Assembly (NCBI GenBank): GCA_012026925.1
Contig: VEPJ01000073.1
Location: 6,340 to 70,339 of the forward strand
Reading direction: 5' to 3'
Length of the DNA stretch: 64,000 bases
Source of the DNA: Gammaproteobacteria bacterium
Lineage (GTDB): Bacteria > Pseudomonadota > Gammaproteobacteria > Steroidobacterales > Steroidobacteraceae
How positions within the stretch are numbered: position 1 is the stretch's first letter; each line of letters begins with the position of its first letter. The position numbers were made by a program, and so were the translations under genes. The notes under the pieces are model-generated. The model was not told the DNA's origin, did not search any database, and saw nothing but the letters and a program-made list of their open reading frames with translations. Of the stretch, positions 26,799-59,121 are shown one piece after another.

Positions 26799-26883
26799 CG
26801 CGGGCTTCCACTCCCCCGGGGTGGCCGAGCAGCCGATGATGTCATACCGCGGCGCGGGCGCGTAGCCGGCGCGACCGTGAGCT

Positions 26884-26997: not shown

Positions 26998-27060
26998 GAC
27001 GAGCCGAGTCGCGGCTCACGTCAACAATCGCAGAGCGAAGCGGGCTCACTGGCACATCGA

Positions 27061-27167: not shown

Positions 27168-27199
27168 ATCGCCAGCGTTGTCCCGGGGAGCGGCTCGCG

Positions 27200-28039: not shown

Positions 28040-28066
28040 GGGTCGCTGGGTCCTCGGTCGGTGGGG

Positions 28067-29610: not shown

Positions 29611-29620
29611 GATCGAGAGT

Positions 29621-37241: not shown

Positions 37242-39152
37242 TCAGCGGTCGAGCAGCGCGACGACGTTGTCGAAGCTGCGGGCGCGGGCGGCGTCGCTGG
37301 CGGCCACGCCATCCCGATTGCGCAGCTTGCGGCTGGCGCCCGCGTCGAGCAGCGCCTGCACGGTCTCCAGGTTGCCTGATTGGCTTGCAAGGATCAGCGC
37401 CGTGTCACCCAGGCGGTTCTGCCCATTCGCGTCGGCCCCTGCGGAGAGCAACCGGCGAACCGTACTGGCATGACCGCCCATCGCCGCAAGCGTGAGTGGC
37501 GTATCGCCGGAACGCGTCTTCGACGCAACGCTGGCGCCCCCGCGAACGAGCCGGTCCACCACAGCCGTGTGACCACGCGCGGCAGCGCAACCGAGCGGGG
37601 TCAAACCGTTCGAGTCCGCCGCGTCGATGGTCGCCCCCGCCTTGAGGAGCAGCGGAACGGTCGCCGCTGCGTCCGCGCAGGCGGCGTACCAGAGCGGCGT
37701 GCGTCCCGACGCGTCCGCCGCCGAGACCGTGGCCCGGGCGTCGATGAGCCGCGCTGCGATCTCGGCCTGGTCGCGCGCCGATGCGATTGAGAGCGCCGCT
37801 GCGCCAATCGAACTGTGCGCGTTCGGATCGGCGCCGGCCGCCAGCAGTAGCGACGCTGAACGAGCGTCACCGTTGTCGACAGCGATGAACAGGGGCGGTT
37901 CCGACGAGTTCGCGTGCGCGTTCGGATCCGCGCCGTGCTTGAGAAGAACCTCGAGCGCCGACGCGTGTCCGAGCTGCACGGCATACTGCAGAGCGGTCGC
38001 GCCCCGGGCATCGGTCTTCGCGACGCTGGCCCCTGCGCCTAGAAGCGCCGCAATCGACTGGCTCGAATCCGACGCGACGGCCACCATGAGGGCCGTCTGC
38101 CCGTCCGGCGCGGCCGCGTTCGGATCGCCGCCCTGGGCGAGCAGGTCGCGCAGGCGCGCCGGATCCTTCCGGGTTGCGGCGACTACCACGTCCGGCCAGC
38201 CCGCGTATGCGTCGGTCGCAGAACGAGGCAGCCGGTCCAGGGGTCCCGCAGCGCCCGTCGAAACCGGCGCCCGCACCGGCGCCGATCCCGCGGCGCGCAG
38301 ATCCTTCGACTGCTGTGCCCGACCGCTGCGGGCAGCGTACGCGAGCGCGGTGTTGCCACCACGATCCGTCGCCGTCACGCTCGCCTTCGCCTGCAGGAGT
38401 CGCGTGCAGGCATCGGGCGACTCGGCGGCGCACGCGAGCATCAATGGCGTCACGCCGTATCGATCCACCGCATCGACCTTCGCTCCGCGGGCAATCAGCA
38501 ACGCGACTGCCTCGTCCTCGCCGCCGTCGGCGGCGTGATGCAGGGCCGTGCGGCCGAAGTCGTCGGCGGAATTCACGCGCTCGGGCGTGGCAAGTGCCTC
38601 GAGCAGCGCCAGGTCACCGCGTCGCGCTGCCCTCCAGAATTCGGCCCGGCGCAACGATTCATCGGCCAGGCCGTCCTGCGGCCGGACTTCGAGAGGCAGG
38701 ACGCCCCGCTGGAGCAGGTCGCGCGCCGCCGGATCGCCGAGGGCCGCCGCTCTCTCGAGCCAGTGCCTGGCGCTGGCCGGATCACGTGGATCGCGCGTGG
38801 CGAACATGGCGGCCAGCGCGTAGGCCGCCCTCGCCTGCCCCTGGCCCGCGGCAGCCTCGAAAAGCTTCTGCGGCTGCCCCGGTTCGGACGCGGGCAAGAG
38901 ATCCGCGAGCAGCATCGAGCCCAGCAGGTACTTCGCCTCCGCGTCGTCACGCGCCGCCTGCTCGGACAGCAATCGCGCGGCGAGCTGGTAGTCCTTGACC
39001 CGGATCGCGGCCTTGGCGGGCTCGAGCGCGTCGGCCGAACGGGTCGGTTGCGCCGCCGGGGCGCTCGCACCGACCGCCCCCGCACACGAGCAGAGCAACA
39101 TCGTCACGAAGGTCGCAGCCGGCCGGACCGCGCGCCGCTCATGCCGTCCCAT
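37242..39152 (-). CDS. exported Sel1/TPR-like plus ankyrin-repeat protein
   Basis: Cys-containing signal region (FVTMLLCSCAGA). Sel1-like units (AEAKYLLGSM..., ARAAYALAAMF...), then about 11 ankyrin-type repeats (G.TALH.AA..G....V..LL..GA..). The start could be 39152 or 39101. Confidence 0.8.
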   Translation of the reverse strand: MGRHERRAVRPAATFVTMLLCSCAGAVGASAPAAQPTRSADALEPAKAAIRVKDYQLAARLLSEQAARDDAEAKYLLGSMLLADLLPASEPGQPQKLFEAAAGQGQARAAYALAAMFATRDPRDPASARHWLERAAALGDPAARDLLQRGVLPLEVRPQDGLADESLRRAEFWRAARRGDLALLEALATPERVNSADDFGRTALHHAADGGEDEAVALLIARGAKVDAVDRYGVTPLMLACAAESPDACTRLLQAKASVTATDRGGNTALAYAARSGRAQQSKDLRAAGSAPVRAPVSTGAAGPLDRLPRSATDAYAGWPDVVVAATRKDPARLRDLLAQGGDPNAAAPDGQTALMVAVASDSSQSIAALLGAGASVAKTDARGATALQYAVQLGHASALEVLLKHGADPNAHANSSEPPLFIAVDNGDARSASLLLAAGADPNAHSSIGAAALSIASARDQAEIAARLIDARATVSAADASGRTPLWYAACADAAATVPLLLKAGATIDAADSNGLTPLGCAAARGHTAVVDRLVRGGASVASKTRSGDTPLTLAAMGGHASTVRRLLSAGADANGQNRLGDTALILASQSGNLETVQALLDAGASRKLRNRDGVAASDAARARSFDNVVALLDR

Positions 39153-40446
39153 ACTTGGTCTCCACGTCGACGCCGATGCTGCGGAGGAAGTCCGCAGGGA
39201 GGATGCCGCCCGCACTGACGATGACCGCGTCGTTCGGGAGTTCGCGCTCCAACTCACCGCGGGCGACGAGCACGCTGTCCCGTTCGATGCGCTTCACTTC
39301 CGACCCGAACAGCACCTCGATGCGGCCGGACTGCATCGCGGCCATCGTGCGCTCGCGGTTGCGCGGCTTCGCCCGCGCGAAAGCCTCGCCACGATAGGAA
39401 AGCGTCACGGTCCGCGCGCCGGATTCAGCGATGCTGAGCGCCGCTTCGAGTGCGCTGTCGCCACCGCCCACGACGAGTACGTCCTGCCCGGCGTACTGCT
39501 CGGGATCAATGAGGCGGTAGACGACCTTGGGGAGTTCCTCGCCCGCCACACCGAGCTTGCGGGGCGTGCCGCGCCGGCCGATGGCGAGCAGCACGCTCGA
39601 CGTCCGGTACTCGGCCTTCGTCGTGCGTACCACGAAGCCGCTGCCCTGTCGCTGGATCGCCTCGACCCGTTCCCGGTAGCGGATCTGCAGTCCGGCCTTG
39701 CTCTCGATGTCCTGCCAGAAACCGAGCAGCGCCTCCTTCGAGGTCTGGCCGAAACGCATCTTGCCTGCGAGCGGCAGCGTGACGGGCGAAGTCATGACCA
39801 GCTTGGCGCGCGGGTACTGGAAGACGCTGCCACCGAGGGATTCCTGCTCGATCGTGGCGAACTTCATGCCGTGCGCCATCGCGGTCAGCGAGGCCGCGAG
39901 TCCCGCCGGACCCGCGCCGACGATCACGAGATCGAGTGCGTCGCCGCCGCGCGACCGACGCCCGTGAATCGCATCCACCGCCTGCTTGCCCTGCGCGAGC
40001 GCGTTGCGGATGAGGCCCATGCCGCCGAGCTCGCCGGCGATGTAGATCCCCGGCACCGACGTCTCGAAGTCGGGGCTCAGCAGCGGGATGTCCACCCCGC
40101 GCTTCGCCGAGCCGAACACGAGCGAGATCGCGTCGGCCGGGCACGCGGTGCGGCACGCTCCGTGGCCGATGCAGTCGGACGGGCTCACGAGCTGCGCCTT
40201 GTTGCCTATGAGCCCGAGCACGTGGTGCTCCGGCTGCTCCGGGCAGGCCTTCACGCACGACCCGCAGCCGATGCACTTCAGCGCGTCGATCACGGGATGG
40301 AGCGACACCGGCTCGGCGAGGCCCGCCGCAACGGCCCGGTCCCGCACGGCGACGTGCGTGCGCTCGGCCCGCTGGCGTCGGCCGAGGTACCAACCCCAGA
40401 TGACGGCCAGCGGTGCGCCGTACACCAGCAGGAACGCGTAGCTCAT
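39139..40446 (-). CDS. membrane-anchored 2x[4Fe-4S] ferredoxin-domain / FAD-NAD(P)-binding oxidoreductase
   Basis: N-terminal TM (AFLLVYGAPLAVIWGWYL). CIGCGSCVKACP and CIGHGACRTACP cluster motifs. Two dinucleotide-binding motifs (VIVGAGPAGLAAS and VLVVGGGDSALEAA), giving a thioredoxin-reductase-like layout. Confidence 0.8.
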   Translation of the reverse strand: MSYAFLLVYGAPLAVIWGWYLGRRQRAERTHVAVRDRAVAAGLAEPVSLHPVIDALKCIGCGSCVKACPEQPEHHVLGLIGNKAQLVSPSDCIGHGACRTACPADAISLVFGSAKRGVDIPLLSPDFETSVPGIYIAGELGGMGLIRNALAQGKQAVDAIHGRRSRGGDALDLVIVGAGPAGLAASLTAMAHGMKFATIEQESLGGSVFQYPRAKLVMTSPVTLPLAGKMRFGQTSKEALLGFWQDIESKAGLQIRYRERVEAIQRQGSGFVVRTTKAEYRTSSVLLAIGRRGTPRKLGVAGEELPKVVYRLIDPEQYAGQDVLVVGGGDSALEAALSIAESGARTVTLSYRGEAFARAKPRNRERTMAAMQSGRIEVLFGSEVKRIERDSVLVARGELERELPNDAVIVSAGGILPADFLRSIGVDVETKYGTA

Positions 40447-40633: not shown

Positions 40634-41467
40634 ATGTCGACGGGTGCCATTGCGTCGAGCACGCGGAGCGGGTTCATACTCGGGCTGTCGGCCGGGGTCG
40701 TCCTCGCGTCGGCATTCTTCCTGCTCCGCGGCGAGTTGGCTGAACCCGCCCAGGCCGGCGCGAGCATCAGCGCCCAGACCGCGCCGACGACATCCGCCGG
40801 TTCGCACCCCATGGCGCCAGGCGGTGACAAGGCGGGCTCCATGGAAGCCGCGACCCTCGCCCTGAAGGCCCGTCTCGCTGCGAATGGCGGGCCCGACGAC
40901 CAGTGGGAACTGCTCGCGCAGTCCTACGACTTCCTCGGTCGCAGCGACGAAGCGAAGCTCGCCCGCCAGCACAAGGTCGCGGCGGGCAGTGATCTCCGCG
41001 ACACGATCGCGGTCAGCGCGATGATGCTGTCTGCAAGCCGCGGCACCGGCAGCGCAGCCTCGGCAGGTTCCGCGCCTGCGCCGTCGAACGACGCGGCTGC
41101 CCGGATCGCCAGCGCCGAACAGCATCGTCGCAACCGCGAGTTCAAGGAAGCGTGCGCCGACTATGCCGCCGTCGTGCGCCTGGGCGCCATGACCGCCGAC
41201 ACCTGGGCCGACTATGCCGACGCGCAGGCGTCCCTCGCCGGCCGTCTCGCCGGCGAGCCGGAGCAGGCCATTGCCAAGGCGCTCGCGCTCGACCCGCGGC
41301 ATACGAAGGCCCTGTGGCTGAAGGCGAGCCTCGCACACGAGCAGCACCGCTACACGGAAGCCCTCGCGACGTGGCGGCAACTGCTGGCGCTGGTGCCCGC
41401 GGGCTCCTCGGACGCCCGGATCGTCGAGGCGAACATCGCCGAAGCGACGCGGCTCGCGAAGAGCTGA
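40634..41467 (+). CDS. membrane-anchored TPR protein resembling the C-terminal (apocytochrome-binding) part of CcmI/CycH/NrfG
   Basis: One N-terminal TM (GFILGLSAGVVLASAFFLL). The segment LKARLAANGGPDDQWELLAQSYDFLGRSDEA and later TPR units (...DPRHTKALWLKASLAHEQHRYTEALATWRQLL). Confidence 0.55.
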   Translation: MSTGAIASSTRSGFILGLSAGVVLASAFFLLRGELAEPAQAGASISAQTAPTTSAGSHPMAPGGDKAGSMEAATLALKARLAANGGPDDQWELLAQSYDFLGRSDEAKLARQHKVAAGSDLRDTIAVSAMMLSASRGTGSAASAGSAPAPSNDAAARIASAEQHRRNREFKEACADYAAVVRLGAMTADTWADYADAQASLAGRLAGEPEQAIAKALALDPRHTKALWLKASLAHEQHRYTEALATWRQLLALVPAGSSDARIVEANIAEATRLAKS

Positions 41468-41476
41468 GGCGCATCC

Positions 41477-42457
41477 ATGTCGGCACGACTGCAGCGGCAG
41501 GAACTTCCTGCACTGGATGCGGCTGGCGCGGCCGCCGGTCCGGGCATCACGCCACGGCGTCCACGCCTCGAAGTCACTCGCACGTCGCCGCGCAACGTGG
41601 CGCAGAGGGCCCCCGTGGAGCCTCGGCGGCTGCGGCTCGACCCGACGTGGCTGTTCGTACTCGCGACGGTGGCCCTGCTCGCCTGGGGCTACCGATTTCC
41701 AACCGAGCGGTACATCACGCCGCAGACCGGCATCGGCTACGCGCTCGGGATCATCGGCGGCTCCTCGATGCTGCTGCTGCTCGTCTATCCGTTGCGCAAG
41801 CGCGTGCGCGCACTTTCGTTCATCGGCACGACCAGGCGCTGGTTCCAGGCGCACATGGTGCTCGGCATCGTCGGCCCGGTCCTCGTGCTATTCCACTCGA
41901 ATTTCAGCCTCGGCGCGACGAACAGCAACGTCGCGCTCGCCTGCATGCTCGTCGTGTCGGGCAGCGGCCTCTTCGGCCGTTACTTCTACGCGCGCATCCA
42001 CCACGGGCTGCACGGTCGTCGCGCGAGCCTGGCGGAACTGCAGGACTATGCCGAGAAGCTCCGCTGGGTGACGACCAACGTCGAGTTCCTGCCGGACCTC
42101 GTCGCGCGGATCGAAGCCGAGGAGCGCGGCATCGTCCGTCGCAGCGAGCGCCTGCCCCTGCTTGCCCGGCCGCCGGTCTGCGCCCTCGGCACCATGCTCG
42201 CGCGGCGCCGCCTGCGCCGATACGTGGTCCAGTCGCTGCAGGGCGCCGCCGGCGGGAGCGACGACCGGGGCCGCCGGTCGAGCCTGGTCGAAACGGCCGC
42301 CCGCTACATCGACGACCGGCTGTCCGCCACCCGCCGGGTGATCGAGTTCGCGGCGTTCGAGCGCCTGTTCTCGCTCTGGCACGCGCTGCACCTGCCGTTG
42401 TTCCTGATGCTGCTGATCGCCGGCGTCGTGCACGTCGTCGCGGTCCACGTGTACTGA
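41477..42457 (+). CDS. polytopic membrane protein with two H-x13-H pairs (ferric-reductase-domain-like dihaem b candidate)
   Basis: Starts 9 nt after the TPR gene. About 5 TM segments. QAH-MVLGIVGPVLVLF-H and ALH-LPLFLMLLIAGVV-H each have exactly 13 residues between the His, both within hydrophobic helices. Confidence 0.55.
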   Translation: MSARLQRQELPALDAAGAAAGPGITPRRPRLEVTRTSPRNVAQRAPVEPRRLRLDPTWLFVLATVALLAWGYRFPTERYITPQTGIGYALGIIGGSSMLLLLVYPLRKRVRALSFIGTTRRWFQAHMVLGIVGPVLVLFHSNFSLGATNSNVALACMLVVSGSGLFGRYFYARIHHGLHGRRASLAELQDYAEKLRWVTTNVEFLPDLVARIEAEERGIVRRSERLPLLARPPVCALGTMLARRRLRRYVVQSLQGAAGGSDDRGRRSSLVETAARYIDDRLSATRRVIEFAAFERLFSLWHALHLPLFLMLLIAGVVHVVAVHVY

Positions 42458-42474
42458 GCGGTGTCGGGACCCGA

Positions 42475-44037
42475 ATGCGACATGTGCGCCCTGTCCTCGG
42501 CCTGGTGGTCCTGATGCTGGCGAGCGCATCACCCCGATCCGCGCCGGCCGCCGGCCTCGAGACCCTCATCATGCCGGGCAAGGTCACGAGCGCGCACGCC
42601 AAGGTCGAGCAGGACTGCTCGCAGTGTCACGATCGCGCGGATCGCAGCCGGCAGGCGGCGCTCTGCATGAACTGCCACAAGGACGTCGCCGCGGATGTGC
42701 GCGCGCATGCCGGCTTCCACGGGCGCCTGCCGTCCATCGACACGGCGCAGTGCAAGGCATGTCATTCCGAGCACCTCGGGCGCGATGCGGACATCGTCAA
42801 GCTGAGCACGCCCGGGTTCGATCACTCGAAGACCGACTTCGCCCTCTCGGGCGCGCACTCGTCGGCCGACTGCGCCGCCTGCCACAAGCCCGGCCGCAAG
42901 TACCGCGAGGCACCGTCGGGCTGTTCCGACTGCCACCGTTCCGACGACCCGCACGGCGGGAAGCTCGGTGCGAACTGCGGCACGTGCCACGAACCGTCGG
43001 CATGGAATCGCGTTCGCTTCGATCACGACAAGACGCGCTTCGTCCTGCGCGACGCGCACCGGGACGTCTCCTGCACCGCATGCCACCCCGGCAACCAATA
43101 CGCCGGCACGCCATCGGCCTGCGCCTCGTGCCATGCGCCGGATGACGTGCACCGCGGCACGCGCGGCCAGGACTGTGCGAGCTGTCATACGACCGTCGCG
43201 TGGAAGACCTCGAAATTCGACCACGCGAAGGAAGCGCACTTCCCGCTGGCCGGCGCGCACGCGCAGCTCGACTGCAAGGGCTGCCATACGACCGCGAGCC
43301 TGAAGGATCCCCTGCCGAAGGACTGCATCGGCTGCCACCGCCCGGACGACGCTCACGCGACACGCTTCGGCACCGCCTGCGAGAAGTGCCACGGGACCTC
43401 GGCCTGGAAGCCGTCGACGTTCAGCCACACACGCGACGGCCGGTTCGAGCTCGTCGGCGGTCACGCGAAACTCGGCTGCACGGCGTGCCACACCGCGGTC
43501 GTGGCGCAGCAGAAGCTCGGCACGGACTGCGCCTCGTGCCATCGCACGACCGACGCTCATGCCGGCAAACTCGGCACGGATTGCGCCCGCTGCCACGGCG
43601 TCGAGTCCTGGCGTGCGGGCGTCACGTTCGATCACGACCTCGCGTCCTACCCGCTGGTCGGGCTCCACGTCGCGGTCCCCTGCCACGCATGCCACGCGAC
43701 GCCGGCGTTCAAGGGCGCTGCGCGCGACTGCAACGGCTGCCACCAGCGCGACGACCGGCACCAGGGCGCGCTCGGCAAGGACTGCGAAGCCTGTCATTCG
43801 CCGAACGGCTGGGCGCTCTGGCAGTTCGACCACGGCAAGGTGACGAAATTCGAGCTCACAGGCGCGCACGCGAGTGTCGCGTGCTCGGGCTGCCACAAGG
43901 AGCCTCCCGAGAAGGCGAAGCTCGACGGCGACTGCGCGTCGTGCCACTCGCGGGATGACGTGCATCTCGGCCAGTTCGGCCGCCAGTGCCAGCGCTGCCA
44001 CGGGACGTCCACGTTCAAGGGCGCGCGCCTGCAATAG
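42475..44037 (+). CDS. periplasmic multihaem c-type cytochrome with 21 CxxCH motifs (seven c7/c3-like trihaem modules)
   Basis: ATG at 42475, signal peptide MRHVRPVLGLVVLMLASA. I counted 21 CxxCH motifs in 520 aa. They are arranged as a repeated ~66-70-aa unit of the form FDH...F.L.GAH....C..CH ... C..CH..DD.H.G..G..C..CH. Confidence 0.9.
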   Translation: MRHVRPVLGLVVLMLASASPRSAPAAGLETLIMPGKVTSAHAKVEQDCSQCHDRADRSRQAALCMNCHKDVAADVRAHAGFHGRLPSIDTAQCKACHSEHLGRDADIVKLSTPGFDHSKTDFALSGAHSSADCAACHKPGRKYREAPSGCSDCHRSDDPHGGKLGANCGTCHEPSAWNRVRFDHDKTRFVLRDAHRDVSCTACHPGNQYAGTPSACASCHAPDDVHRGTRGQDCASCHTTVAWKTSKFDHAKEAHFPLAGAHAQLDCKGCHTTASLKDPLPKDCIGCHRPDDAHATRFGTACEKCHGTSAWKPSTFSHTRDGRFELVGGHAKLGCTACHTAVVAQQKLGTDCASCHRTTDAHAGKLGTDCARCHGVESWRAGVTFDHDLASYPLVGLHVAVPCHACHATPAFKGAARDCNGCHQRDDRHQGALGKDCEACHSPNGWALWQFDHGKVTKFELTGAHASVACSGCHKEPPEKAKLDGDCASCHSRDDVHLGQFGRQCQRCHGTSTFKGARLQ

Positions 44038-44048
44038 GAGGCCCGGAC

Positions 44049-47000
44049 ATGAGCAAGCTCCAACGGCTCGTCGTTCTATGCCTGCTGGCGATTGCGGGGC
44101 ACGGCGCTCTTGCACAAGGTGCAGGATCCAGCTTCGATCACGTCACGACCGGCTACGAGCTCACCGGGGCGCACCGTCTGCAGGCCTGCGAGTCGTGCCA
44201 CGTCGACGCCGTGTTCCAGGGCACGCCGCGTGCGTGCGCGGCCTGCCATTCGCAGGGTTCGCGCATCGGGGCCACGCCGAAGAACTCCGGCCACATCCGC
44301 AGCACCGAGCAGTGCGACGCGTGCCACACCACCTCGGCGTGGTCCCCGGCGACGCGCTTCGACCACGAGCAGACCCAGGGCACGTGCTCGTCCTGCCACA
44401 ACAACGCGCAGGTCTCCGGCAAGCCGGCCGGCCACATCGCGACGACCATGGAGTGCAGCGCGTGCCACGGCACCGCGGCCTGGAGCCCGTCGAAGTTCGA
44501 CCACGGCAGCGTTTCGGGCGATTGCGCCTCGTGCCACACGCCGGGCGGCACCGCCACGGCCAAGGGTCCTTCGCACCTGCAGACCAGCAACGCGTGCGAT
44601 GCCTGCCACACCGTCGGCGCCTGGGCGCCCACGGCGCGCGTCGACCACACGCAGGTGAGCGGCGCCTGCGCCTCGTGCCACGACGGCACGCATGCGAAGG
44701 GCAGGAGCACGACGCACATTCCGAGCGCGGACGGTTGCGAGTCGTGCCACTCGACCTCGGCCTGGCGCCCGGCGCGCTTCGACCACGCGGGCGTCACGGA
44801 GCGTTGCGTCACCTGTCACGACGGGACCAAGGCGACCGGCGTCGGCGCGAAGCACATCAAGGCCACGACGTCCTGCGACGCGTGCCACGCGACCGTCGCG
44901 TGGAAACCGGTGACCCGCGTGGACCACGCCAATGTGCTCGGCAGCTGCTCGTCCTGCCACAACGGCACGCTCGCCACCGGCCAGAGCGCAAACCACATCG
45001 TGACCCGCGCCGAGTGCGACAGCTGTCACTCGAGCACGGCCTGGAAGCCGGCGAAGTTCGATCACTCGGGGTACGTGAACAATTGCGCGAGCTGCCACGA
45101 CGGCACGCGCGCCAAGGGGAAGAACCCGACCCACCTGCGGACGACCGAATCGTGCGAGTCCTGCCACGTCATCGCCGGCTGGAAGCCTGTCTCCGCGGTC
45201 GATCACACGCAGGTGCTCGGGACCTGCTCTTCCTGCCACGACGGCACTGCTGCGACTGGCAAGTCCGCGAACCACATCCCCACCGACGGCGCGTGCAGCA
45301 ACTGCCACACCACGAATGCCTGGAAGCCCGCCAAGTTCAGCCACGACGGCGTGACGGCGACCTGCATCACCTGCCATGACGGCACTCGCGCGACCGGGAA
45401 GAGCACGACCCACATCCAGTCGAGCAACGGCTGCCAGGCCTGTCATTCGACGTTCAGCTGGCGCCCGGTCACGCGCGTCGACCATGCGCAGGTCACCGGC
45501 AGCTGCTATTCCTGCCACAACGGGACCACGGCGAGCGGCAAGCACTCCGCGCACCTGACGACCAGCAACGACTGCGCCGCGTGTCACGCGACCCAGGCGT
45601 GGAAGCCTGCCACGCGCGTCGATCACGCCAGCGTGCTCGGCACCTGCGGCAGCTGCCACGACGGGAAGATCGCCACCGGCAAGACGGCGAACCACATCGT
45701 GACCCGCGCCGAGTGCGGGGACTGCCACGCGACGTCGGCCTGGAAGCCGGCGCGGTTCGACCACTCCTCGATCACCGAGGCCTGCTCCGTGTGCCACGAC
45801 GGCGTCAAGGCCACGGGCAAGACCACGAGCCACATACCGACGACGGCCGAGTGCGGAACGTGCCACGCGACTGCGGCGTGGAAGCCAGCGCGGTTCTCGC
45901 ATGACGGCATCACCGCCGCCTGCATCACTTGCCACGACGGCGTCAAGCAGACGGGCAAGAGCACCACCCACATCCAGTCGACCGACGGCTGCCAGGCCTG
46001 TCACTCGACGACCGGCTGGCGCCCGGTCGTGAAGGTGGATCACGCGCAGGTGTCGGGCAGCTGCTACTCCTGCCACAACGGCACCTCTGCAACGGGCAAG
46101 AACGCGTCGCACATCCAGTCCACGAACAACTGCGCGGCTTGCCACGCGACGACGGCGTGGAAGCCCGCGACCTCGGTGGATCACGGCGAAGTGACCGGCA
46201 GCTGTTTCTCCTGTCACAACGGGACCTCAGCCAAAGGCAAGCCCGTCAATCACATCGTGAGCAGCGACGACTGCGCCGCCTGCCACACGCCGTCGGCCTG
46301 GAAGCCGGCGAAGTGGGACCACACGGGCATCGTGGACAAGTGCTCCAGCTGCCACGACGGCGTGAAGGCGACGGGCAAGACGGCGACACATCTTGCGACG
46401 ACCGCGACCTGCGAAGCGTGCCACTCGGTCTCGGGCTGGAGGCCCGCGACCCGCGTCGACCACGCGCAGGTGATCGGTACTTGCAGCTCCTGCCACGACG
46501 GCGCGAAGGCGCCCGGCAAGGGCCCGAACCACATCCCGACGACGTCGGAGTGCGGCAGCTGCCACACGACGCTTGCATGGAAGCCGGCGAACTTCACCCA
46601 CGCCGGCATCACGTCGGGGTGTGCCACCTGCCACGACGGCATCAAGGCGACCGGCAAGTCGGCCACGCACCTCTTCACGAGCGCTGCGTGCGAGGCCTGC
46701 CACTCGACGAGCGCGTGGAAACCCGCGACCCGCGTGGATCACGCGCAGGTGCTCGGCACCTGCTCGAGCTGCCACAACGGCGCGAAGGCCACCGGGAAGC
46801 CCGTCAATCACATCGTCACCAACGCCGAGTGCGGCAGCTGCCACGGCACGACCGCATGGAAACCCGCGACCGGCTTCGACCACTCGGGCGTCACGGGCAA
46901 CTGCTACAGCTGCCACGACGGCGTCAAGGCCACGGGCAAGGGTGCGACACACATCACGACCGACACCAGCTGCGAGAGCTGCCACGCGACGAGCGCCTGG

Positions 47001-48311
47001 AAGCCGGCCCTGCGCGTCGATCACGGCCACGTCTCCGGCACCTGTTCGACCTGCCACAACGGCACGACGGCCACGGGCAAGGGGACGAACCACATTCCGA
47101 CCACCCAGGAGTGCGGCAGCTGCCACTCGACGCTGGCATGGGTGCCTGCGAATTTCACGCACACGGGCATCACCTCGAACTGCTCGAGCTGCCACGACGG
47201 CGTGAAGGCCACGGGCAAGAATGCTGCCCACATCTTCACGACGGCCGTCTGCGAAGCGTGCCATGCAACCTCGGCGTGGAAGCCGGCGACCCGCGTGGAT
47301 CACGCGCAGGTGCTCGGCACGTGCTCGAGCTGCCACAACGGCTCGAAGGCGACCGGCAAGCCCACGAACCACATCACTACGTCGGCCGAGTGCGGCAACT
47401 GTCACTCGACCACCGCGTGGAAGCCGGCCACGGGCTTCACGCACGACGGCATCACCGGCAACTGCTACAGCTGCCACAACGGCGTGAACGCCGGCGGCAA
47501 GAGCGCCACGCACCTGCAGACGAGCAACCTCTGCGAGTCGTGCCACTCGCCCGCCGGCTGGAAGCCCGCCGTGCGCGTGGACCACAGCCAGGTGATCGGC
47601 AGCTGCTACTCGTGCCACAACGGCACGAACGCCACCGGCAAGAACGCCACGCACATCACGAGCGACACGAGCTGCGACGCCTGCCACACGACGACGGCCT
47701 GGAAGCCGGCGGCGCGCGTCGACCACAACCACGTCACGGGCACGTGCTCGAGCTGCCACAACGGCGTGCAGGCGCCGGGCAAGCCCACCAACCACATTCC
47801 AACGACGCAGGAATGCGGCGTCTGCCATTCGACCCTCGCCTGGCTGCCGGCCGCCTTCGACCACACCGGCGTGACGAGCGGGTGCAGGAACTGCCACAAC
47901 GGCACGACCGCGAGCGGTCCGTCCACCGGCCACATGACGTTCCCGGTCAACAACTTCGACTGCAACAAGTGCCACACGACGACGGCCTGGTCGCCCAACA
48001 CGTTCAGGCACCTCGCCGGCGGCGGCTACCCCGGCGACCATCGCGTCGCGCTGACGTGCACGAGCTGCCACACGACCAACACCGATGCCGCCACCTGGCG
48101 CGCTCCCGCCTACAAGCCGGACTGCGCGGGCTGCCACGCGAGCCGTTTCAAGCCCGACCCGCACAAGAAGTACGGCGACGTGAAGTACACGGTGAGCGAG
48201 CTGCGCAACTGCTCCGGCGCATGCCACATCTACACCGACTCGACGCTGACGACGATCGCCACGCGTCGCTCGGGCCCGCAGCACCGCATCACCGACACGG
48301 AATTCCACTGA
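44049..48311 (+). CDS. giant secreted multihaem c-type cytochrome with 58 CxxCH motifs
   Basis: ATG at 44049, 11 nt after the 21-haem gene. Signal peptide MSKLQRLVVLCLLAIAGHGALA. I counted 58 CxxCH motifs in 1420 aa, mostly in ~47-aa dihaem units of the form AWKPA.RVDH..V.G.C.SCH.G..A.GK...HI.T...C..CH. Confidence 0.9.
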   Translation: MSKLQRLVVLCLLAIAGHGALAQGAGSSFDHVTTGYELTGAHRLQACESCHVDAVFQGTPRACAACHSQGSRIGATPKNSGHIRSTEQCDACHTTSAWSPATRFDHEQTQGTCSSCHNNAQVSGKPAGHIATTMECSACHGTAAWSPSKFDHGSVSGDCASCHTPGGTATAKGPSHLQTSNACDACHTVGAWAPTARVDHTQVSGACASCHDGTHAKGRSTTHIPSADGCESCHSTSAWRPARFDHAGVTERCVTCHDGTKATGVGAKHIKATTSCDACHATVAWKPVTRVDHANVLGSCSSCHNGTLATGQSANHIVTRAECDSCHSSTAWKPAKFDHSGYVNNCASCHDGTRAKGKNPTHLRTTESCESCHVIAGWKPVSAVDHTQVLGTCSSCHDGTAATGKSANHIPTDGACSNCHTTNAWKPAKFSHDGVTATCITCHDGTRATGKSTTHIQSSNGCQACHSTFSWRPVTRVDHAQVTGSCYSCHNGTTASGKHSAHLTTSNDCAACHATQAWKPATRVDHASVLGTCGSCHDGKIATGKTANHIVTRAECGDCHATSAWKPARFDHSSITEACSVCHDGVKATGKTTSHIPTTAECGTCHATAAWKPARFSHDGITAACITCHDGVKQTGKSTTHIQSTDGCQACHSTTGWRPVVKVDHAQVSGSCYSCHNGTSATGKNASHIQSTNNCAACHATTAWKPATSVDHGEVTGSCFSCHNGTSAKGKPVNHIVSSDDCAACHTPSAWKPAKWDHTGIVDKCSSCHDGVKATGKTATHLATTATCEACHSVSGWRPATRVDHAQVIGTCSSCHDGAKAPGKGPNHIPTTSECGSCHTTLAWKPANFTHAGITSGCATCHDGIKATGKSATHLFTSAACEACHSTSAWKPATRVDHAQVLGTCSSCHNGAKATGKPVNHIVTNAECGSCHGTTAWKPATGFDHSGVTGNCYSCHDGVKATGKGATHITTDTSCESCHATSAWKPALRVDHGHVSGTCSTCHNGTTATGKGTNHIPTTQECGSCHSTLAWVPANFTHTGITSNCSSCHDGVKATGKNAAHIFTTAVCEACHATSAWKPATRVDHAQVLGTCSSCHNGSKATGKPTNHITTSAECGNCHSTTAWKPATGFTHDGITGNCYSCHNGVNAGGKSATHLQTSNLCESCHSPAGWKPAVRVDHSQVIGSCYSCHNGTNATGKNATHITSDTSCDACHTTTAWKPAARVDHNHVTGTCSSCHNGVQAPGKPTNHIPTTQECGVCHSTLAWLPAAFDHTGVTSGCRNCHNGTTASGPSTGHMTFPVNNFDCNKCHTTTAWSPNTFRHLAGGGYPGDHRVALTCTSCHTTNTDAATWRAPAYKPDCAGCHASRFKPDPHKKYGDVKYTVSELRNCSGACHIYTDSTLTTIATRRSGPQHRITDTEFH
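44150..47900 (+). repeat. in-frame tandem coding repeats (~141-nt dihaem units with a higher-order 561-nt block)
   Basis: The periodic ...TGCCAC... pattern and the recurring GCCTGGAAGCC/GTCGACCAC strings are visible throughout. An identical 33-mer lies at 46727-46759 and 47288-47320. Confidence 0.85.
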
Positions 48312-50695
48312 TGCGGCCCGGCACCCAAAGGCTCGCATCGCTCGCACTGCTTGCGCTGCTCGCGGATCCGGCGGCCGCGCAGGTCGCCGGGCGGCTGGTC
48401 GACGAGGTCAGCGTCGGCGAGCAGGATGGCTACGCGACGGTCACCTTCGTGTTCGGCTGCAACGTGCAGTACGTGAGCCACGTACCGGCCAGCAGCGGTG
48501 ACACGGTGCGAGTACGGCTCGTGCCGGGACCGGACTGCGGGTCGCCCGCAGCGGGCTGGATCGTGCCACCGCCGCTCGACCCCCGCGGCGTGATCCGCGC
48601 GGTGGACGTCGACCGCACCATGGGCCGCAACGTGGACCTCGCGATTCGCTGGTCGAAGTCGGAGCAGTTCGTGCTGGTTCCATCGACGAACCGGCGGGGC
48701 CTGCGAATCCTGCTCGTGCGGCCCGAGGCGGACCGCTCCAGCGTGAGCGTGAAGGAGGTGACCGGCAGCGTCTCGGTCTATGCCGTCAATCTCGACGCTT
48801 CGCAGCAGCCGTACGACGCGGCCTCCATCGCAGCGGCGCAGCAGGTGACCGGAGTAAGTGCCTACGTCTCGGAGACCACCGTCGACGGGCAGAAGTGGTA
48901 CCGGTTGCGCGCCGGTCCGTTCGTCGCCGAGTCCGATGCGCGCAAGGTCCTGGTCGCTGCGCGCACCCGCTACCCGAAGGCATGGCTCGCGGTGTCCGAC
49001 GACCCGAAGATGAGCAAGACCGGGCTGCCGGATGCGGTCGGCAGCGTGCAGACGGTCGCGACTCCCGGCAATGCGACGCTGACCCAGCAGGACATCGACC
49101 AGACGTTGAAGCGCGCGCAGGAGATGATGCGGCGCAAGGACTACGTCGTCGCGATCCAGCTGCTCACGCGCCTGACGGAGCAGCCCGAATTCCCGCAGCG
49201 CGCCGAGGCCCAGGAACTGCTGGGACTGGCCCGCGAGCGCAACGGCCAGCTCGCCCACGCGAAGGCCGAGTACGAGGAGTATCTCCGGCGCTATCCGGAT
49301 GGCGACGCGGCCGACCGCGTGTCGAAGCGATTGCGTGCGATCACGTTCGCGGCGAGCCCAGCCAGCGCCCAGGCGCGGACGGCTGCTGCGGACGAGTCGA
49401 AGTGGAAGGTCTACGGTGGCATATCCCAGACCTATCGCCGGGACTCGAGCACGTTCGACAACGGTACGGTGTCGAGGAATTCGACCACGCAGGACGCGAT
49501 CCTGAACGACGTGGCGCTGGCCGCGCGTCGCAGCGGCGAGCGCTACGACGTCGCGGTGCGGGTGAGCGGTGCGTACGGCATCGACATGATGTCGGACGGC
49601 CCCGGCAACCAGGGCACGCTGACGCTGCTGTTCGCGGAGCTCCGCGACCGCGTGCTCGACTGGACGGTGCGCGGCGGTCGCCAGTCGGGCAGCCTCGGCG
49701 GATTGATCGGTACATTCGACGGCCTGTATGGCGGCTACCAGGTCGCGCCGAAGTTGCGCCTCAACGCGTACCTCGGCTACCCCGTCAATTCCGCGCGCTC
49801 GGCGCCCTCCTCGGACCAGACGTTCTACGCTTTGTCCGCCGACATCGGCACGTTCGCCGAGGCCTGGGATCTCTCGCTGTACGCGATCGACCAGACCTAC
49901 ACCGGGTACACGGACCGCCAGGCGATCGGCACGGAGCTGCGCTACTTCCGGCCGGGCCTGACGTTCGTCGGTCTCGCCGACTACGACATCCACTTCGGCG
50001 ACCTGAACGACGTACTGCTGCTCGGCACGGCAGCGCTCCCCGCCCGCTGGACGATGAGCGTGAATTACGACCATCGCAAGAGCCCGGGACTGAGCCTGCG
50101 CAATGCACTGATCGGGCAGCCCGTGCGCACGTTCGACCAGCTGTTCGACCTCTTCTCTGCGTCGCAGATCCAGCAGCTGGCACAGGACCGGACGGCGGCG
50201 TCAGACACCTACACCTTGTCGCTGTCGAGGCCGTTCGGCGAGCGCTGGCAGTGGTCACTGGACCTCTCGGGCATGAGCATCAGCGGGACGCCGGCGTCGG
50301 GCGGCGTCGAGGCGACGGCGCCTTCCGGCACGGACTACATCGTCTCGTCACAGGCGCTCGGCTACGGGCTCTTCGGGCGCGGCGACGTGTCCTCGCTCGG
50401 CTTGCAGTACCAGACCGGAGAGGCGACCGATACGATCTCGCTCGGCCTCTACACGCAGCTGCCGGTCGGGCAGATGTGGCGCCTGAGCCCGCGGATCCGG
50501 TTCGACCAGCGCCAGTTCCACACCGACGGATCGACTCAGCTGCTCTACGCGCCCGGGCTGCGCGCCGAGATGCGCTGGCAGAGGTTCTGGCTCGAACTCG
50601 AGGGCGGCGCCGAGATCGGTCAGCGTTCGCTCGGCGACTCGAGCGCCGACACCACCCGCTATTACTTCAGTCTTGGATACCGCTATGACCTCTGA
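48311..50695 (+). CDS. outer-membrane protein with signal peptide, SPOR-like domain, TPR-like segment and C-terminal beta-barrel
   Basis: ATG at 48311 overlaps the cytochrome TGA (TGATG). Signal peptide LALLALLADPAAA. SPOR-like YAVNL...DGQKWYRLRAGPFVAESDARKVL. TPR-like KDYVVAIQLL...AEYEEYLRRYPDG. Then ~430 aa of alternating amphipathic strands ending YYFSLGYRYDL. Confidence 0.7.
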   Translation: MRPGTQRLASLALLALLADPAAAQVAGRLVDEVSVGEQDGYATVTFVFGCNVQYVSHVPASSGDTVRVRLVPGPDCGSPAAGWIVPPPLDPRGVIRAVDVDRTMGRNVDLAIRWSKSEQFVLVPSTNRRGLRILLVRPEADRSSVSVKEVTGSVSVYAVNLDASQQPYDAASIAAAQQVTGVSAYVSETTVDGQKWYRLRAGPFVAESDARKVLVAARTRYPKAWLAVSDDPKMSKTGLPDAVGSVQTVATPGNATLTQQDIDQTLKRAQEMMRRKDYVVAIQLLTRLTEQPEFPQRAEAQELLGLARERNGQLAHAKAEYEEYLRRYPDGDAADRVSKRLRAITFAASPASAQARTAAADESKWKVYGGISQTYRRDSSTFDNGTVSRNSTTQDAILNDVALAARRSGERYDVAVRVSGAYGIDMMSDGPGNQGTLTLLFAELRDRVLDWTVRGGRQSGSLGGLIGTFDGLYGGYQVAPKLRLNAYLGYPVNSARSAPSSDQTFYALSADIGTFAEAWDLSLYAIDQTYTGYTDRQAIGTELRYFRPGLTFVGLADYDIHFGDLNDVLLLGTAALPARWTMSVNYDHRKSPGLSLRNALIGQPVRTFDQLFDLFSASQIQQLAQDRTAASDTYTLSLSRPFGERWQWSLDLSGMSISGTPASGGVEATAPSGTDYIVSSQALGYGLFGRGDVSSLGLQYQTGEATDTISLGLYTQLPVGQMWRLSPRIRFDQRQFHTDGSTQLLYAPGLRAEMRWQRFWLELEGGAEIGQRSLGDSSADTTRYYFSLGYRYDL

Positions 50696-51269
50696 CACGA
50701 GTCGTTTGCAACGACGCTTGCGTCCAGTCGTCGCGCTCGCCATCGCGCTCGCCGCCGCGTCGTGTGCTTCGGGACCAGGCCAGGACGTCGCCAGTCGCAC
50801 GGGGGCGGCGGCCGATGCCCGCGCCACCGTCGCTTACGGCACACTCGTCTTCGCCCGCGAGCGGCCGGAACTGGCAGCCCACGCCCGCGATTACCTGACA
50901 CTCGTGCCGGTCGCCGTCGGGCCCGCCGGATCGCAGTCGCTGTACTTCTACGGCTACGTCTGGTCGACCATCGACAAGCGCGGGCTGCGCGCCTCGGACG
51001 ACGCAGCCGGCCAGTTCGAGTTGATCGCCGATGATCGGAGGATTCCGCTCGCTCCGGTCCAGGCCACGCCCGATGAACTGGGATTGGCCGTGCCGCCCGT
51101 GCGCGCGCCTTCGGGCTCCGCCCGGCTACTGATCGCCGCGACCAGCCGCGAGACGCTCGAGTTCCTTGCTGCAGCGGGCAAGGTCCGCGCCGTCCGTGTG
51201 GACGGCGATAAGGCAGAGCGTTACGAGCTCTGGTCGGGCAACCCCGACTCGCTCCTCGCGATGCGATAG
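50685..51269 (+). CDS. lipoprotein of unknown function (last gene of the multihaem operon)
   Basis: ATG at 50685 overlaps the barrel gene by 11 nt. Lipobox-like ALAAASC. No motif recognised. Confidence 0.5.
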   Translation: MTSDTSRLQRRLRPVVALAIALAAASCASGPGQDVASRTGAAADARATVAYGTLVFARERPELAAHARDYLTLVPVAVGPAGSQSLYFYGYVWSTIDKRGLRASDDAAGQFELIADDRRIPLAPVQATPDELGLAVPPVRAPSGSARLLIAATSRETLEFLAAAGKVRAVRVDGDKAERYELWSGNPDSLLAMR

Positions 51270-51331
51270 GAAAGAAGGTGCCATTCACCGAATTTCCGAC
51301 TCGGAAATTCGGTGAATGGCACCTATTTTCC
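51269..51331. repeat. palindromic intergenic element, copy 3 (perfect 24-bp arms)
   Basis: AGGTGCCATTCACCGAATTTCCGA (51276-51299), C, then TCGGAAATTCGGTGAATGGCACCT (51301-51324). It lies exactly between convergent stops at 51269 and 51331 and shares GGTGCC and ATTTCCG strings with copies 1 and 2. Confidence 0.9.
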
Positions 51332-53405: not shown

Positions 53406-54590
53406 CTAATTCGGGCGGGCCGGATCCACGGGCCCGCTCGACGCCGGCGAGGGCTTCTCGGCCAGGATCGCGGACGAGACCCAGCCCGTGTGCTCGGCAC
53501 CGCCTGCGACGCGGAACCGGATGAGCGACGAGGACTGCTGCATCCGGAGCACCTGGACCAGGTCCCCCTTGGCCACTGTCCCCACGACGGCACCGTCCGA
53601 GTACACGACCGAGTCGGCGACGACGACCCTCACGGCGTCGTTGCCGGGTGCCGCGAGCAACCGCTCGTTCGCGAGCCCCAGGTTCTTCTGGGCCTCCTCG
53701 AAATAACGTGGCGACTCGGTGATCGCCGACTGGAAATATCGCTTGGCGGAGTCGAAGTCGCCGCGTTCCATCGCCGCTTCGCCGAGGAGGTTGTACGCGT
53801 GCGCCAGGTCGGTGTCCCGGGTCAGCGTCTCCAGCGCCTCGGCGTAGCGGCCCTGCACGGCCTGCACCTTCCCCAGGTTCCGCCAGACGTTTCCCTTCGC
53901 ACCGAGGCGAATGGCCGCCTTGAGATCGGCCTCGGCACCGGGCAGGTCGCCCGCCAGGTAGCGCGAAAAGCCACGGTTGTTCATCACCATGGCCGCGCCG
54001 GGCTCGATCGCGAGGGCCTTGTCGTAGTCGCTGATGGCCGCCGTGAAATCGCCGCGGCGATCCGCGAGTATCCCGAGGCCGTTCCAGGATTTCCAGCGCT
54101 TCGGATCCAGCGCGATGGCCCTTTCGAACAGCGGGGGTGCCTCGGCGTCCCGGCCGGACTGGATATACAGCAGGCCCAGCCGCTCGCAGACCCCGGGGTT
54201 GTCCGGCTGCCGCTCGAGCGCAAGTTCGTAGGCCTTCTCCGCGAGCTGCACGTTGCCTTTCTGCTCGTGGATCGCGCCGATCTTCACGAACGGCTCGGAC
54301 CGCGTGGAGTCGAACGACAGCGACTCGACGTAGAGATACACGGCGAGATCGAGCTTGCCCGCCTGGTAGGCGGCGTCACCGCGCTTGATGCCGTCGTCCG
54401 CGGACGTTACCGGGTACTGCGTGGAATGGACGATCGACGGCTCGCCGGAGTAGAGCTGGCTCGCGGCCTGCTTGTCGATGGCGCGCGCCATCTCGGCGCC
54501 CTGCTTCGCGGCTTTGTCGGAATGCGTCGAGGCGCAACCCGCCATTGCCGCAATCAGCAGCCACGCCACGAGACCCGTCCGCGACCTCAC
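53406..54590 (-). CDS. tadD: TadD-like TPR lipoprotein with C-terminal SH3-like domain
   Basis: Lipobox LIAAMAGC and multiple TPR units. The C-terminal ~70 aa (VVYSDGAVVGTVAKGDLVQVL...GWVSSAIL) looks like a bacterial SH3 domain. Last gene of the tad operon. Confidence 0.65.
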   Translation of the reverse strand: MRSRTGLVAWLLIAAMAGCASTHSDKAAKQGAEMARAIDKQAASQLYSGEPSIVHSTQYPVTSADDGIKRGDAAYQAGKLDLAVYLYVESLSFDSTRSEPFVKIGAIHEQKGNVQLAEKAYELALERQPDNPGVCERLGLLYIQSGRDAEAPPLFERAIALDPKRWKSWNGLGILADRRGDFTAAISDYDKALAIEPGAAMVMNNRGFSRYLAGDLPGAEADLKAAIRLGAKGNVWRNLGKVQAVQGRYAEALETLTRDTDLAHAYNLLGEAAMERGDFDSAKRYFQSAITESPRYFEEAQKNLGLANERLLAAPGNDAVRVVVADSVVYSDGAVVGTVAKGDLVQVLRMQQSSSLIRFRVAGGAEHTGWVSSAILAEKPSPASSGPVDPARPN

Positions 54591-55561: not shown

Positions 55562-55565
55562 GGCG

Positions 55566-56540: not shown

Positions 56541-56549
56541 GCGCTTCTC

Positions 56550-57905: not shown

Positions 57906-57908
57906 GGA

Positions 57909-59108: not shown

Positions 59109-59121
59109 GTGTCAGGACCGC

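Follow-up and report, generated by a model that had tools for sequence, protein, structure and literature searches.

A 58-haem cytochrome encoded in a Steroidobacteraceae genome belongs to a PCC3 porin-cytochrome cluster

A Gammaproteobacteria genome assigned to the family Steroidobacteraceae (GenBank assembly GCA_012026925.1, contig VEPJ01000073.1, positions 6,340 to 70,339 of the forward strand; this stretch of 64,000 nucleotides (nt) is hereafter called the window, and all coordinates refer to it) encodes a protein of 1420 amino acids (aa) with 58 haem-binding motifs. Judged by its sequence, this protein is the large outer cytochrome of a porin-cytochrome cluster of the class termed PCC3, and every sequence feature that defines the class is found at the locus. 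The open reading frame (ORF) is a real, conserved gene under purifying selection, and 58 haems are typical of a large and widespread protein family. We consider it likely that the protein is the large distal cytochrome of a conduit spanning the cell envelope, with the operon arranged as outlined below and outward electron flow favoured. Both the PCC3 class and members larger than this one have been published before; the protein is striking, not new. We found no literature report of PCC3 in Steroidobacteraceae, which are apparently a carrier family not yet reported.

PCC3 was named from genome sequences and comprises a porin, one "extracellular" and one periplasmic multihaem cytochrome, and an inner-membrane protein (IMP) (He et al., 2017, Front Microbiol 8:1584, PMC5566968). 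By definition, the IMP has about 300 aa and five helices, of which helix 4 bears SGxxG and helices 3 and 5 bear W-x3-H-x13-H. The cytochromes are repetitive and rich in Thr, Ser, Ala and Gly, with 22–39 aa per haem; haem medians are 34 for the large and 21 for the periplasmic cytochrome, maxima reach 63 (Amphritea) and 85 (Agromonas S58), and the Leptothrix cholodnii porin has 22 strands (He et al., 2017). Named examples are SCD_n00973/WP_148290741.1 of Sulfuricella denitrificans skB26 and Slit_1446-1449 of Sideroxydans lithotrophicus ES-1. PCC3 cytochromes have been modelled as long, mostly linear molecules for which wire and capacitor roles are discussed (Hoover et al., 2023). As of 2025, the class was described as functionally unverified. 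In the window, four genes at 41477–50695, spaced by 1–17 nt, correspond to these components:

41477 to 42457, plus strand: PCC3 IMP, 326 aa, with W-x3-H-x13-H twice and SGxxG
42475 to 44037, plus strand: 21-haem periplasmic cytochrome, 520 aa, 21 CxxCH motifs in seven c7-like trihaem units (Pfam Cytochrome_C7, E 2.4e-31)
44049 to 48311, plus strand: 58-haem cytochrome c, the large "extracellular" PCC3 cytochrome, 1420 aa
48311 to 50695, plus strand: PCC3 "porin", 794 aa, its start overlapping the cytochrome stop by 1 nt

The IMP sites W122-x3-H126-x13-H140, S163-G164-x2-G167 and W301-x3-H305-x13-H319 are invariant in an alignment of 11 sequences (A1) that includes the Ferribacterium protein at 37% identity, and the Sulfuricella IMP shares the motifs; the five helices were counted by eye. 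The 21 CxxCH motifs of the periplasmic cytochrome are spaced 16–17/18/32–33 in six regular units (haems 4–21), and its first unit is irregular (16/29/40). The large cytochrome combines 58 motifs at 24.5 aa per haem, a Thr, Ala, Ser and Gly content of 45% and a dihaem repeat of 46–47 aa, a period it has in common with the ~47 aa published for large PCC3 cytochromes; its haem number lies above the published median of 34 and below the published maxima. The adjacent porin gene encodes a C-terminal barrel that is modelled with 22 strands.

Membership was assessed against the locus of Sulfuricella denitrificans skB26, which He et al. (2017) list among the PCC3 carriers. Each of the following window proteins finds its counterpart there as best match: the large cytochrome (WP_148290741.1; 39.5% identity, E=0), the 21-haem cytochrome (39%, E 8e-126), the IMP (40%, E 3e-47), the barrel protein (29%, E 9e-56) and a neighbouring iron-sulfur (FeS) flavoprotein (57%, 4e-164). 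Hence IMP, periplasmic and large cytochrome and barrel are shared, and every component is homologous. WP_148290741.1/SCD_n00973 falls into homologue cluster P0031 of the large cytochrome. The gene order matches Sulfuricella denitrificans skB26 (locus L083), Ferribacterium limneticum (L001) and about 60 other related loci. There are differences as well: in Sulfuricella and Ferribacterium a CcmH-like TPR gene follows the barrel gene and the periplasmic cytochrome has 24 haems, whereas in the window the TPR gene stands first in the operon and the periplasmic cytochrome has 21 haems.

The ORF of the large cytochrome starts with ATG at 44049 and ends with the stop codon at 48309–48311 on the plus strand. 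A GGAGG Shine-Dalgarno sequence lies 7 nt 5' of the ATG, directly past the stop of the 21-haem gene. An initial annotation made from the translation had counted 58 CxxCH motifs in 1420 aa, which is correct if the variant CSGACH that it had listed is included: the protein holds 57 CxxCH and one CxxxCH motif (CSGACH, aa 1388). By comparison, shuffling its residues yields a mean of 0.84 and a maximum of 6 CxxCH motifs (n=2000). The distance between successive motifs alternates between 23 and 24 aa. Leu, Ile, Val, Phe, Met, Tyr and Trp together make up 14.6% of the residues, and of three Met residues one is the initiator.

The annotation had also proposed a dihaem repeat unit and one further conserved His per haem, enough for bis-His ligation. 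The register listing bears out the unit with its length of 46–47 aa, and an alignment of five orthologues contains 62 invariant His residues outside the motifs for 58 haems. Of these, 52 stand at position -7, and accordingly 52 of the 57 CxxCH motifs read H-x6-CxxCH, the His preceding the first Cys by exactly 7 residues. Since at least one extra invariant His is available per haem, essentially all 58 haems can, as far as the ligand pattern indicates, be low-spin bis-His electron-transfer centres. The protein can be divided as follows:

44049 to 44114, plus strand: predicted Sec signal peptide, aa 1–22, MSKLQRLVVLCLLAIAGHGALA / QG, with a type I cleavage site and no lipobox, read from the n/h/c-region pattern of the translation
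44133 to 44327, plus strand: c7-like trihaem head, aa 29–93, haems 1–3
44328 to 47975, plus strand: repeat body, aa 94–1309, haems 4–55, 26 dihaem units of 46–47 aa by the register listing
47898 to 48308, plus strand: C-terminal cap module, aa 1284–1420 (~137 aa), non-repetitive, haems 55–58 (CNKCH, CTSCH, CAGCH and CSGACH)

Pfam recognises Cytochrome_C7 16 times along the chain (2e-67). BLASTP aligns the trihaem head with six of the seven trihaem units in the 21-haem protein (33–38% identity, E 1e-13 to 1e-6), as anticipated by the annotation, which had described a c7-type N-terminal module akin to the upstream protein; the match to the first unit is weak (29%, E 0.03). Here and below, homologue figures refer to the best 120 of more than 2500 homologues of the large cytochrome. 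The FDHxxTGFxLxGxH start is found in 70 of these. In the repeat body, the dihaem unit has the form [AW.P...DH-x6-CxxCH][.G..A.GK...H-x6-CxxCH] and is arranged in 4- and 8-haem super-repeats, the last half-unit being degenerate. Alignment of 13 four-haem units reveals 22 invariant columns, which include W, P, every Cys and every His. The non-repetitive C-terminal domain noticed initially is a recurring element as well: the cap sits at the extreme C-terminus of 43 of the 120 homologues with 37–57% identity. Across 44 aligned sequences, its W, its conserved His residues and C-x-G-x-C-H do not vary, and because of this invariance the CxxxCH very probably serves as a genuine haem site.

Repetitive genes are easily mis-assembled, and it had to be considered whether the array is an artefact of assembly, a repeat that was collapsed or expanded, or a pseudogene. 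In addition, the homologous gene is broken into two to three overlapping ORFs in several related long-read metagenome-assembled genomes (MAGs; loci L005, L007, L016, L018, L025 and L033), which may reflect sequencing frameshifts or real pseudogenes there. However, the DNA repeats in the window are diverged: Tandem Repeats Finder returns periods of 138–141 and 279 nt with only 65–77% matches, and the gene contains no stretch of 40 nt or more that recurs exactly. Orthologues from four independent MAGs (L004, L006, L010 and L015) are all exactly 1420 aa long, align without gaps at 77–82% identity and carry the same 57+1 motifs. Of the 123 His, 117 Cys and 29 Trp residues, 120, 116 and 29, respectively, are invariant across the five sequences, as compared with 63% of all columns. 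The ratio of nonsynonymous to synonymous substitution rates (dN/dS) against the four orthologues is 0.14–0.21 at a dS of 0.7–0.8. Given the diverged repeats, the gapless orthologues and the purifying selection, an artefact, a frameshift or a pseudogene is ruled out for practical purposes, and we assign this explanation a negligible probability.

Two side observations concern the composition of the gene. Between 44000 and 48000, and only within the cytochrome gene, the AT skew is strongly positive (+0.20 to +0.28) and the GC skew negative, which we attribute to codons rich in Thr, Ala, His and Cys rather than to replication. Furthermore, long stop-free ORFs run antisense inside the gene (44153–44815, 45623–46000, 46250–46738 and 47606–48025, all minus strand), with a GC content at third codon positions of 0.93–0.96. 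They look like by-products of a codon usage that is repetitive and biased. Three antisense ORFs of this kind (L083, 8049–9263) are annotated as genes in the Sulfuricella record and are probably spurious.

Comparison of haem counts among homologues, a check proposed by the initial annotation, places the protein in the middle of its family. The homologues carry 33–93 CxxCH motifs with a median of 60, and 73 of them have at least 58; because of this range, 58 haems are typical. The uniqueness implied by the annotation is overstated, since published PCC3 members reach 63 and 85 haems and the homologues collected here up to 93 CxxCH. Some relatives of the large cytochrome are lipoproteins with Gly/Ser linkers or carry PKD domains. 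The best-scoring homologue is found on a JGI 3300027814 contig (L002): it has 83 haems in 2183 aa and ends in a poly-Pro/Gly-Met tail. This homologue sits in a different context, next to proteins with 29 and at least 86 haems and to a cytochrome with a PKD domain, and the IMP was not found at the locus.

Loci were collected via the IMP, which yielded 80, all from MAGs of Steroidobacteraceae or unclassified Gammaproteobacteria/Pseudomonadota; haem counts were scanned in 82 loci and gene context in 83. In public data, the IMP family comprises 2708 clusters at 50% identity (E≤1e-3) or 589 at E≤1e-30. The periplasmic cytochrome has 21 haems in 62 of the 80 IMP-found loci and in 64 of the 82 scanned. 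In the other scanned loci its gene is cut, split or missing, except for one with 22 haems (L042). The second cytochrome ranges from 19 to 61 CxxCH, and the 57 of the window are exceeded only by two loci with 61. Its CxxCH counts are mostly odd and become even once the CxxxCH site is added. Relatives with 61+1 motifs are longer by 93 aa (four haems) and relatives with 51+1 motifs shorter by 139 aa (six haems), which are whole multiples of the dihaem unit. A fixed number of 21 haems next to a variable second cytochrome fits a periplasmic bridge of fixed distance that would be continued by a free-ended distal element.

PCC3 follows the same logic as the MtrCAB/MtoAB systems, which combine a haem rod in the periplasm with an outer-membrane barrel and an outer cytochrome; the haems of MtrCAB/MtoAB are bis-His ligated, as those of the window cytochromes are predicted to be. 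MtrA is also the nearest solved structure by sequence (PDB 6R2Q; E 4e-5 with the whole protein, 2e-4 with the repeat profile). However, MtrA/MtoA are 10-haem proteins of the DmsE/MtrA family, whereas the window cytochromes have 58 and 21 haems. MtrB is a 26-strand barrel, while the window barrel has ~22 strands and a long periplasmic SPOR-TPR extension. In place of the CymA/NapC-type quinol dehydrogenase of MtrCAB-type systems, the window encodes the unrelated five-helix IMP, and the outer cytochrome is not a lipoprotein and lacks Greek-key domains like those of MtrC. The NCBIfam DmsE family (TIGR03508) scores 233 against a cut-off of 192, and it does so because ten partial matches along the repeat protein are summed, the best covering model positions 65–249. 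Assignment to the DmsE/MtrA decahaem family, whose members have about 300–350 aa with ten CxxCH, fit the model over its full length and pair with an MtrB/DmsF-type barrel, was rejected: only partial stretches match, 58 haems are spread over 1420 aa and the barrel has no specific MtrB match.

Polymer cytochromes of the c7 type from Geobacter (GSU1996, PDB 3OV0) and the trihaem PpcA family resemble the window proteins in their c7-like modules of bis-His haems (predicted for the window proteins) with little protein per haem, and the repeat profile matches 3OV0 at E 0.009. GSU1996-type proteins are, however, built from trihaem repeats, whereas the repeat body here is dihaem and trihaem units occur only in the head and in the 21-haem neighbour. 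GSU1996 itself is periplasmic, has 12 haems and is not known to come with an operon for a dedicated porin or IMP. Consistently, the NCBIfam model for c7-type "nanowire" cytochromes (TIGR04257) gives 38.7 bits for the 58-haem and 22.1 bits for the 21-haem protein, both below its cut-off of 40, and membership was rejected for these scores and the dihaem body repeat. The Geobacter filaments of OmcS, OmcE and OmcZ are comparable in the proposed role, as here, too, electrons would be conducted extracellularly along an unbroken chain of haems over tens of nanometres. They are homopolymers of 4–8-haem subunits held together by inter-subunit contacts, whereas the window protein is one covalent polypeptide of 58 haems. 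PDB sequence and profile searches and Foldseek revealed no likeness in sequence or fold to OmcS, OmcE or OmcZ. Overall, PDB searches with the sequence and the 13-unit repeat profile returned weak matches only (MtrA-type, c554, ActA, HmcA and GSU1996; E 1e-5 to 1e-2) and no close solved relative.

The porin is composed of a signal peptide, a beta domain, a SPOR domain (aa ~157–228), TPR helices (~259–361) and the C-terminal beta-barrel (aa 365–793); Pfam detects SPOR (7.8e-05) and TPR. The AlphaFold2 model has a mean predicted local distance difference test score (pLDDT) of 71.6 and 22 strands in aa 365–793, with barrel blocks mostly at 66–90 and a low-confidence insertion near aa 590–630. Foldseek aligns it with generic outer-membrane barrels at a probability of 1.00 (ushers, Occ porins, AlgE, PelB and PgaA), and a specific relation to MtrB was dropped on this result. 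The periplasmic part of ~360 aa, with its beta domain, peptidoglycan-binding SPOR and TPR, precedes the barrel (48311–49393, plus strand). This architecture recalls TPR-barrel polysaccharide exporters (PelB, PgaA, AlgK/E), which are present among the fold matches. A protein from a Logan assembly (P0241, 794 aa) is 100% identical to the porin over the best local alignment.

We propose that the cluster forms a continuous haem path across the envelope. The IMP would bind two b haems and carry electrons across the inner membrane, the 21-haem rod would bridge the periplasm, and the barrel would let the haem chain pass through the outer membrane. The 58-haem protein would extend the chain outward as a single-polypeptide wire and may double as an electron store. 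Solved haem wires (MtrA, OmcS and GSU1996) span ~0.8–1 nm per haem. At this spacing the 21-haem rod is estimated to be ~17–21 nm long, and the 58-haem protein would measure ~45–58 nm if fully extended. The initial annotation had likewise suggested that the chain could reach tens of nanometres, more than the width of a periplasm.

A different function for the large cytochrome would be that of a multihaem enzyme, e.g., a terminal reductase or oxidase for a soluble substrate, in which the repeats feed a catalytic haem in the C-terminal module. The cap could be read in this way, as it is non-repetitive, conserved and contains the uncommon CxxxCH, and the weak profile matches include c554, HmcA and octahaem-type proteins. 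However, no CxxCK motif or missing distal ligand is seen among the 58 haems with their 62 invariant non-motif His residues, similarity to NrfA, HAO, MccA or Otr does not rise above noise, and 54 wire haems would make an unduly large antenna for a substrate in solution. The docking or terminal-reductase end that the initial annotation had considered for the C-terminus finds no specific support either; all haems appear to be six-coordinate, which argues against a catalytic site. As the sequence carries no signature of an unligated haem, the enzyme reading was rejected, and we regard it as very improbable. A wire is favoured, because every haem has a matching distal His in the sequence and the nearest solved relatives, although weakly similar, are MtrA-type wires.

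The location of the protein is less clear-cut. It may instead stay in the periplasm and serve mainly as an electron store or buffer, so that only the 21-haem protein engages the barrel. The ordinary Sec/type I signal peptide without lipobox would suit this location, no secretion system could be assigned to the protein, a capacitor role has been proposed in the literature for many-haem cytochromes, and a variable haem number would be as acceptable for a store as for a wire. On the other hand, an extended chain of the length estimated above would be too long for the periplasm. The gene lies between those of the periplasmic cytochrome and the barrel and overlaps the barrel start, like the outer cytochrome genes of Mtr-type clusters, which is an argument from synteny, not proof. 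Relatives with lipoprotein anchors or PKD domains point to the surface, and a surface location would fit the family. Weighing these points, we consider a periplasmic store rather unlikely and the 58-haem protein probably extracellular, by analogy with such systems.

Several results nevertheless weigh against an extracellular wire at the end of a PCC3 conduit. The window cytochrome has a type I signal peptide and no lipobox, and no route for its export across the outer membrane was identified. The published extracellular placement of large PCC3 cytochromes relies on localisation predictors (He et al., 2017), and our own placement on these earlier predictors and on analogy. Proteomes of ES-1 never contained the "extracellular" PCC3 cytochrome Slit_1448 (PMC12016527), and no functional test of any PCC3 component was found in the literature. 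The AlphaFold2 model of the C-terminal 535 aa (21 haems and cap), built from a 44-sequence alignment, reached a mean pLDDT of only 60.8 and a predicted template-modelling score of 0.28, and its Foldseek search against the PDB gave a single non-significant match (PpcD, E 4.4). Foldseek found no specific MtrB likeness of the porin barrel, which resembles generic barrels including polysaccharide exporters and ushers. Likewise, Pfam and PDB profile searches detected no similarity of the IMP to any known b-type cytochrome family. Pfam (E up to 10) and PDB profiles gave nothing meaningful for it (DUF4405 at E 1.6; Ni_hydr_CYTB at E 0.0024 for the Sulfuricella orthologue only), and because of this the assignment of the IMP as a putative dihaem b-type transmembrane electron carrier is derived from its motifs. 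Finally, the discovery of PCC3 in Fe(II) oxidisers is an argument that electrons flow inward in at least some of the hosts.

The direction of electron flow is the least certain step of the mechanism. A gene divergent from the operon bears on this question:

39139 to 40446, minus strand: membrane-anchored flavoprotein, 435 aa, with an N-terminal transmembrane helix, a PsaC-like 2x[4Fe-4S] domain and a TrxR-type ferredoxin-NADP reductase (FNR)/YpdA-like FAD/NAD(P) domain

Pfam identifies Pyr_redox_3 (2e-43) and Fer4 families in this protein, the NCBIfam YpdA model matches below its cut-off (7e-49), and its PDB relatives are YpdA/Bdr and TrxR-like FNRs. The flavoprotein is conserved in 73 of the 83 loci at 61–82% identity, and it is found in Ferribacterium (55%) and Sulfuricella (57%) as well. 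This is the highest identity among the non-haem components compared, the variable cytochrome being outside that comparison. Because the FeS-FNR-like flavoprotein is conserved to this degree, also in the Betaproteobacteria examined, outward flow is favoured; the data suggest it. Electrons would be passed from cytoplasmic NAD(P)H via FAD/FeS to the b haems, the 21 haems and the 58 haems, and from there to an extracellular or insoluble acceptor, for instance oxides of Fe(III)/Mn(IV) or humics. Independently, a recent study of karst MAGs reported ferredoxin-NADP reductase genes beside 4–5 kb "decaheme" clusters of the porin-cytochrome type and favoured electron export, by heterotrophs (2026; PMC13264449).

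The two H-x13-H pairs on two transmembrane helices of the PCC3 IMP have been likened to proteins of the ferric-reductase-domain/NOX/MsrQ type (He et al., 2017). In a NOX-type path, an NAD(P)H flavoprotein feeds a dihaem b protein, and the neighbouring FeS-flavoprotein would complete a similar outward path here. In contrast to the NOX/MsrQ type, the IMP has no detectable similarity to PF01794 or any solved structure, and the flavoprotein is a separate polypeptide with a TrxR fold. As a tentative proposal, doubtful in its full extent, PCC3 of Steroidobacteraceae and their relatives may be a quinone-independent, NOX-like outward conduit, in which a membrane-tethered ferredoxin-FNR fusion passes electrons from cytoplasmic NAD(P)H to the dihaem IMP, a 21-haem "ruler" spanning the periplasm and a ~50-nm extracellular single-polypeptide nanowire whose length evolves as dihaem units are gained and lost.

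The opposite direction was proposed for iron oxidisers by He et al. (2017, PMC5566968): the 58-haem wire would take up electrons from Fe(II), Fe(II)-bearing minerals or reduced solids and pass them via the 21-haem rod and the IMP to the quinone pool. Carriers of PCC3 include Fe(II) oxidisers such as Sideroxydans and Leptothrix, one PCC3 copy is reported to have its IMP gene upregulated during iron oxidation by Sideroxydans CL21, and conduits of the Mtr/Mto type are known from the literature to be reversible. However, Fe(II) minerals did not induce the PCC3 proteins of ES-1, whose large PCC3 cytochrome went undetected (PMC12016527). The genomes closest to the window are Steroidobacteraceae MAGs, and the conserved FeS-FNR-like partner fits an NAD(P)H donor. 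We take Steroidobacteraceae to be a heterotrophic family, and reduction of NAD(P)+ with electrons from Fe(II) is uphill, which also counts against uptake. We therefore regard inward flow as unlikely for these hosts. It remains a serious rival to outward flow because PCC3 was discovered in iron oxidisers.

The large cytochrome gene is the fourth of six packed plus-strand genes with gaps or overlaps of 1–17 nt. Beside the four core genes and the flavoprotein, the following features make up the locus:

37242 to 39152, minus strand: ankyrin/Sel1-repeat protein, 636 aa, secreted (Pfam Ank_2, 4.6e-74), divergent from the operon
40634 to 41467, plus strand: secreted TPR protein, 277 aa, similar to the CcmH/CycH/NrfG TPR domain that acts as apocytochrome chaperone, first operon gene
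50685 to 51269, plus strand: small lipoprotein, 194 aa, lipobox ...LAAASC, last operon gene, overlapping the porin stop
51277 to 51323, no strand: 47-nt palindrome with arms of up to 20–22 bp and a short loop, between the operon and a convergent acyl-CoA dehydrogenase gene

The operon TPR protein matches Pfam TPR_CcmH_CycH (5e-06) and NCBIfam NrfG (4e-06), both below cut-off. It is present in 74 of the 83 loci and in the Sulfuricella and Ferribacterium clusters, there downstream of the barrel gene. An ankyrin-repeat homologue occupies the same position in 68 of the 83 related loci, and a homologue of the lipoprotein, which has no Pfam or NCBIfam match, lies 3' of the porin in 49. The FeS-FNR-like, ankyrin and lipoprotein neighbours, although conserved at this locus, are outside the published PCC3 definition. 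The palindrome looks like a bidirectional terminator. A scan of the operon region for sigma-70 promoters returned no match and is uninformative at the ~69% GC of this organism.

Further genes lie at some distance from the operon. About 2 kb downstream, at 53406–59111 (minus strand) and beyond, a set of Tad/Flp-pilus-type genes encodes a TPR lipoprotein, two T2SS-F proteins, a T2SS-E ATPase and a ParA/TadZ-like protein. Upstream, 23931–29620 (minus strand) holds genes for a cyanophycin synthetase-like protein (1029 aa), an S51 cyanophycinase-like peptidase and an amidohydrolase, possibly an isoaspartyl dipeptidase. A predicted membrane protein of 1012 aa without a Pfam match at E≤0.001 is encoded at 31464–34502 (plus strand).

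The protein is impressive, yet it will not surprise a specialist. The value of the find lies mainly in a clean and well-conserved PCC3 example with close orthologues for comparison. If the proposed mechanism is true, a complete path of ~80 haems would begin at the inner membrane's cytoplasmic face and end tens of nanometres outside the cell, and the large cytochrome would be a genetically encoded single-chain protein wire of tunable length. The NOX-like variant, if correct, would add a monomeric alternative to polymerised cytochrome filaments that is maybe common in ordinary soil heterotrophs. The carriers would be abundant soil Gammaproteobacteria that are not regarded as metal respirers, and extracellular electron transfer would shape the cycling of Fe, Mn and C in a wider range of organisms and environments.

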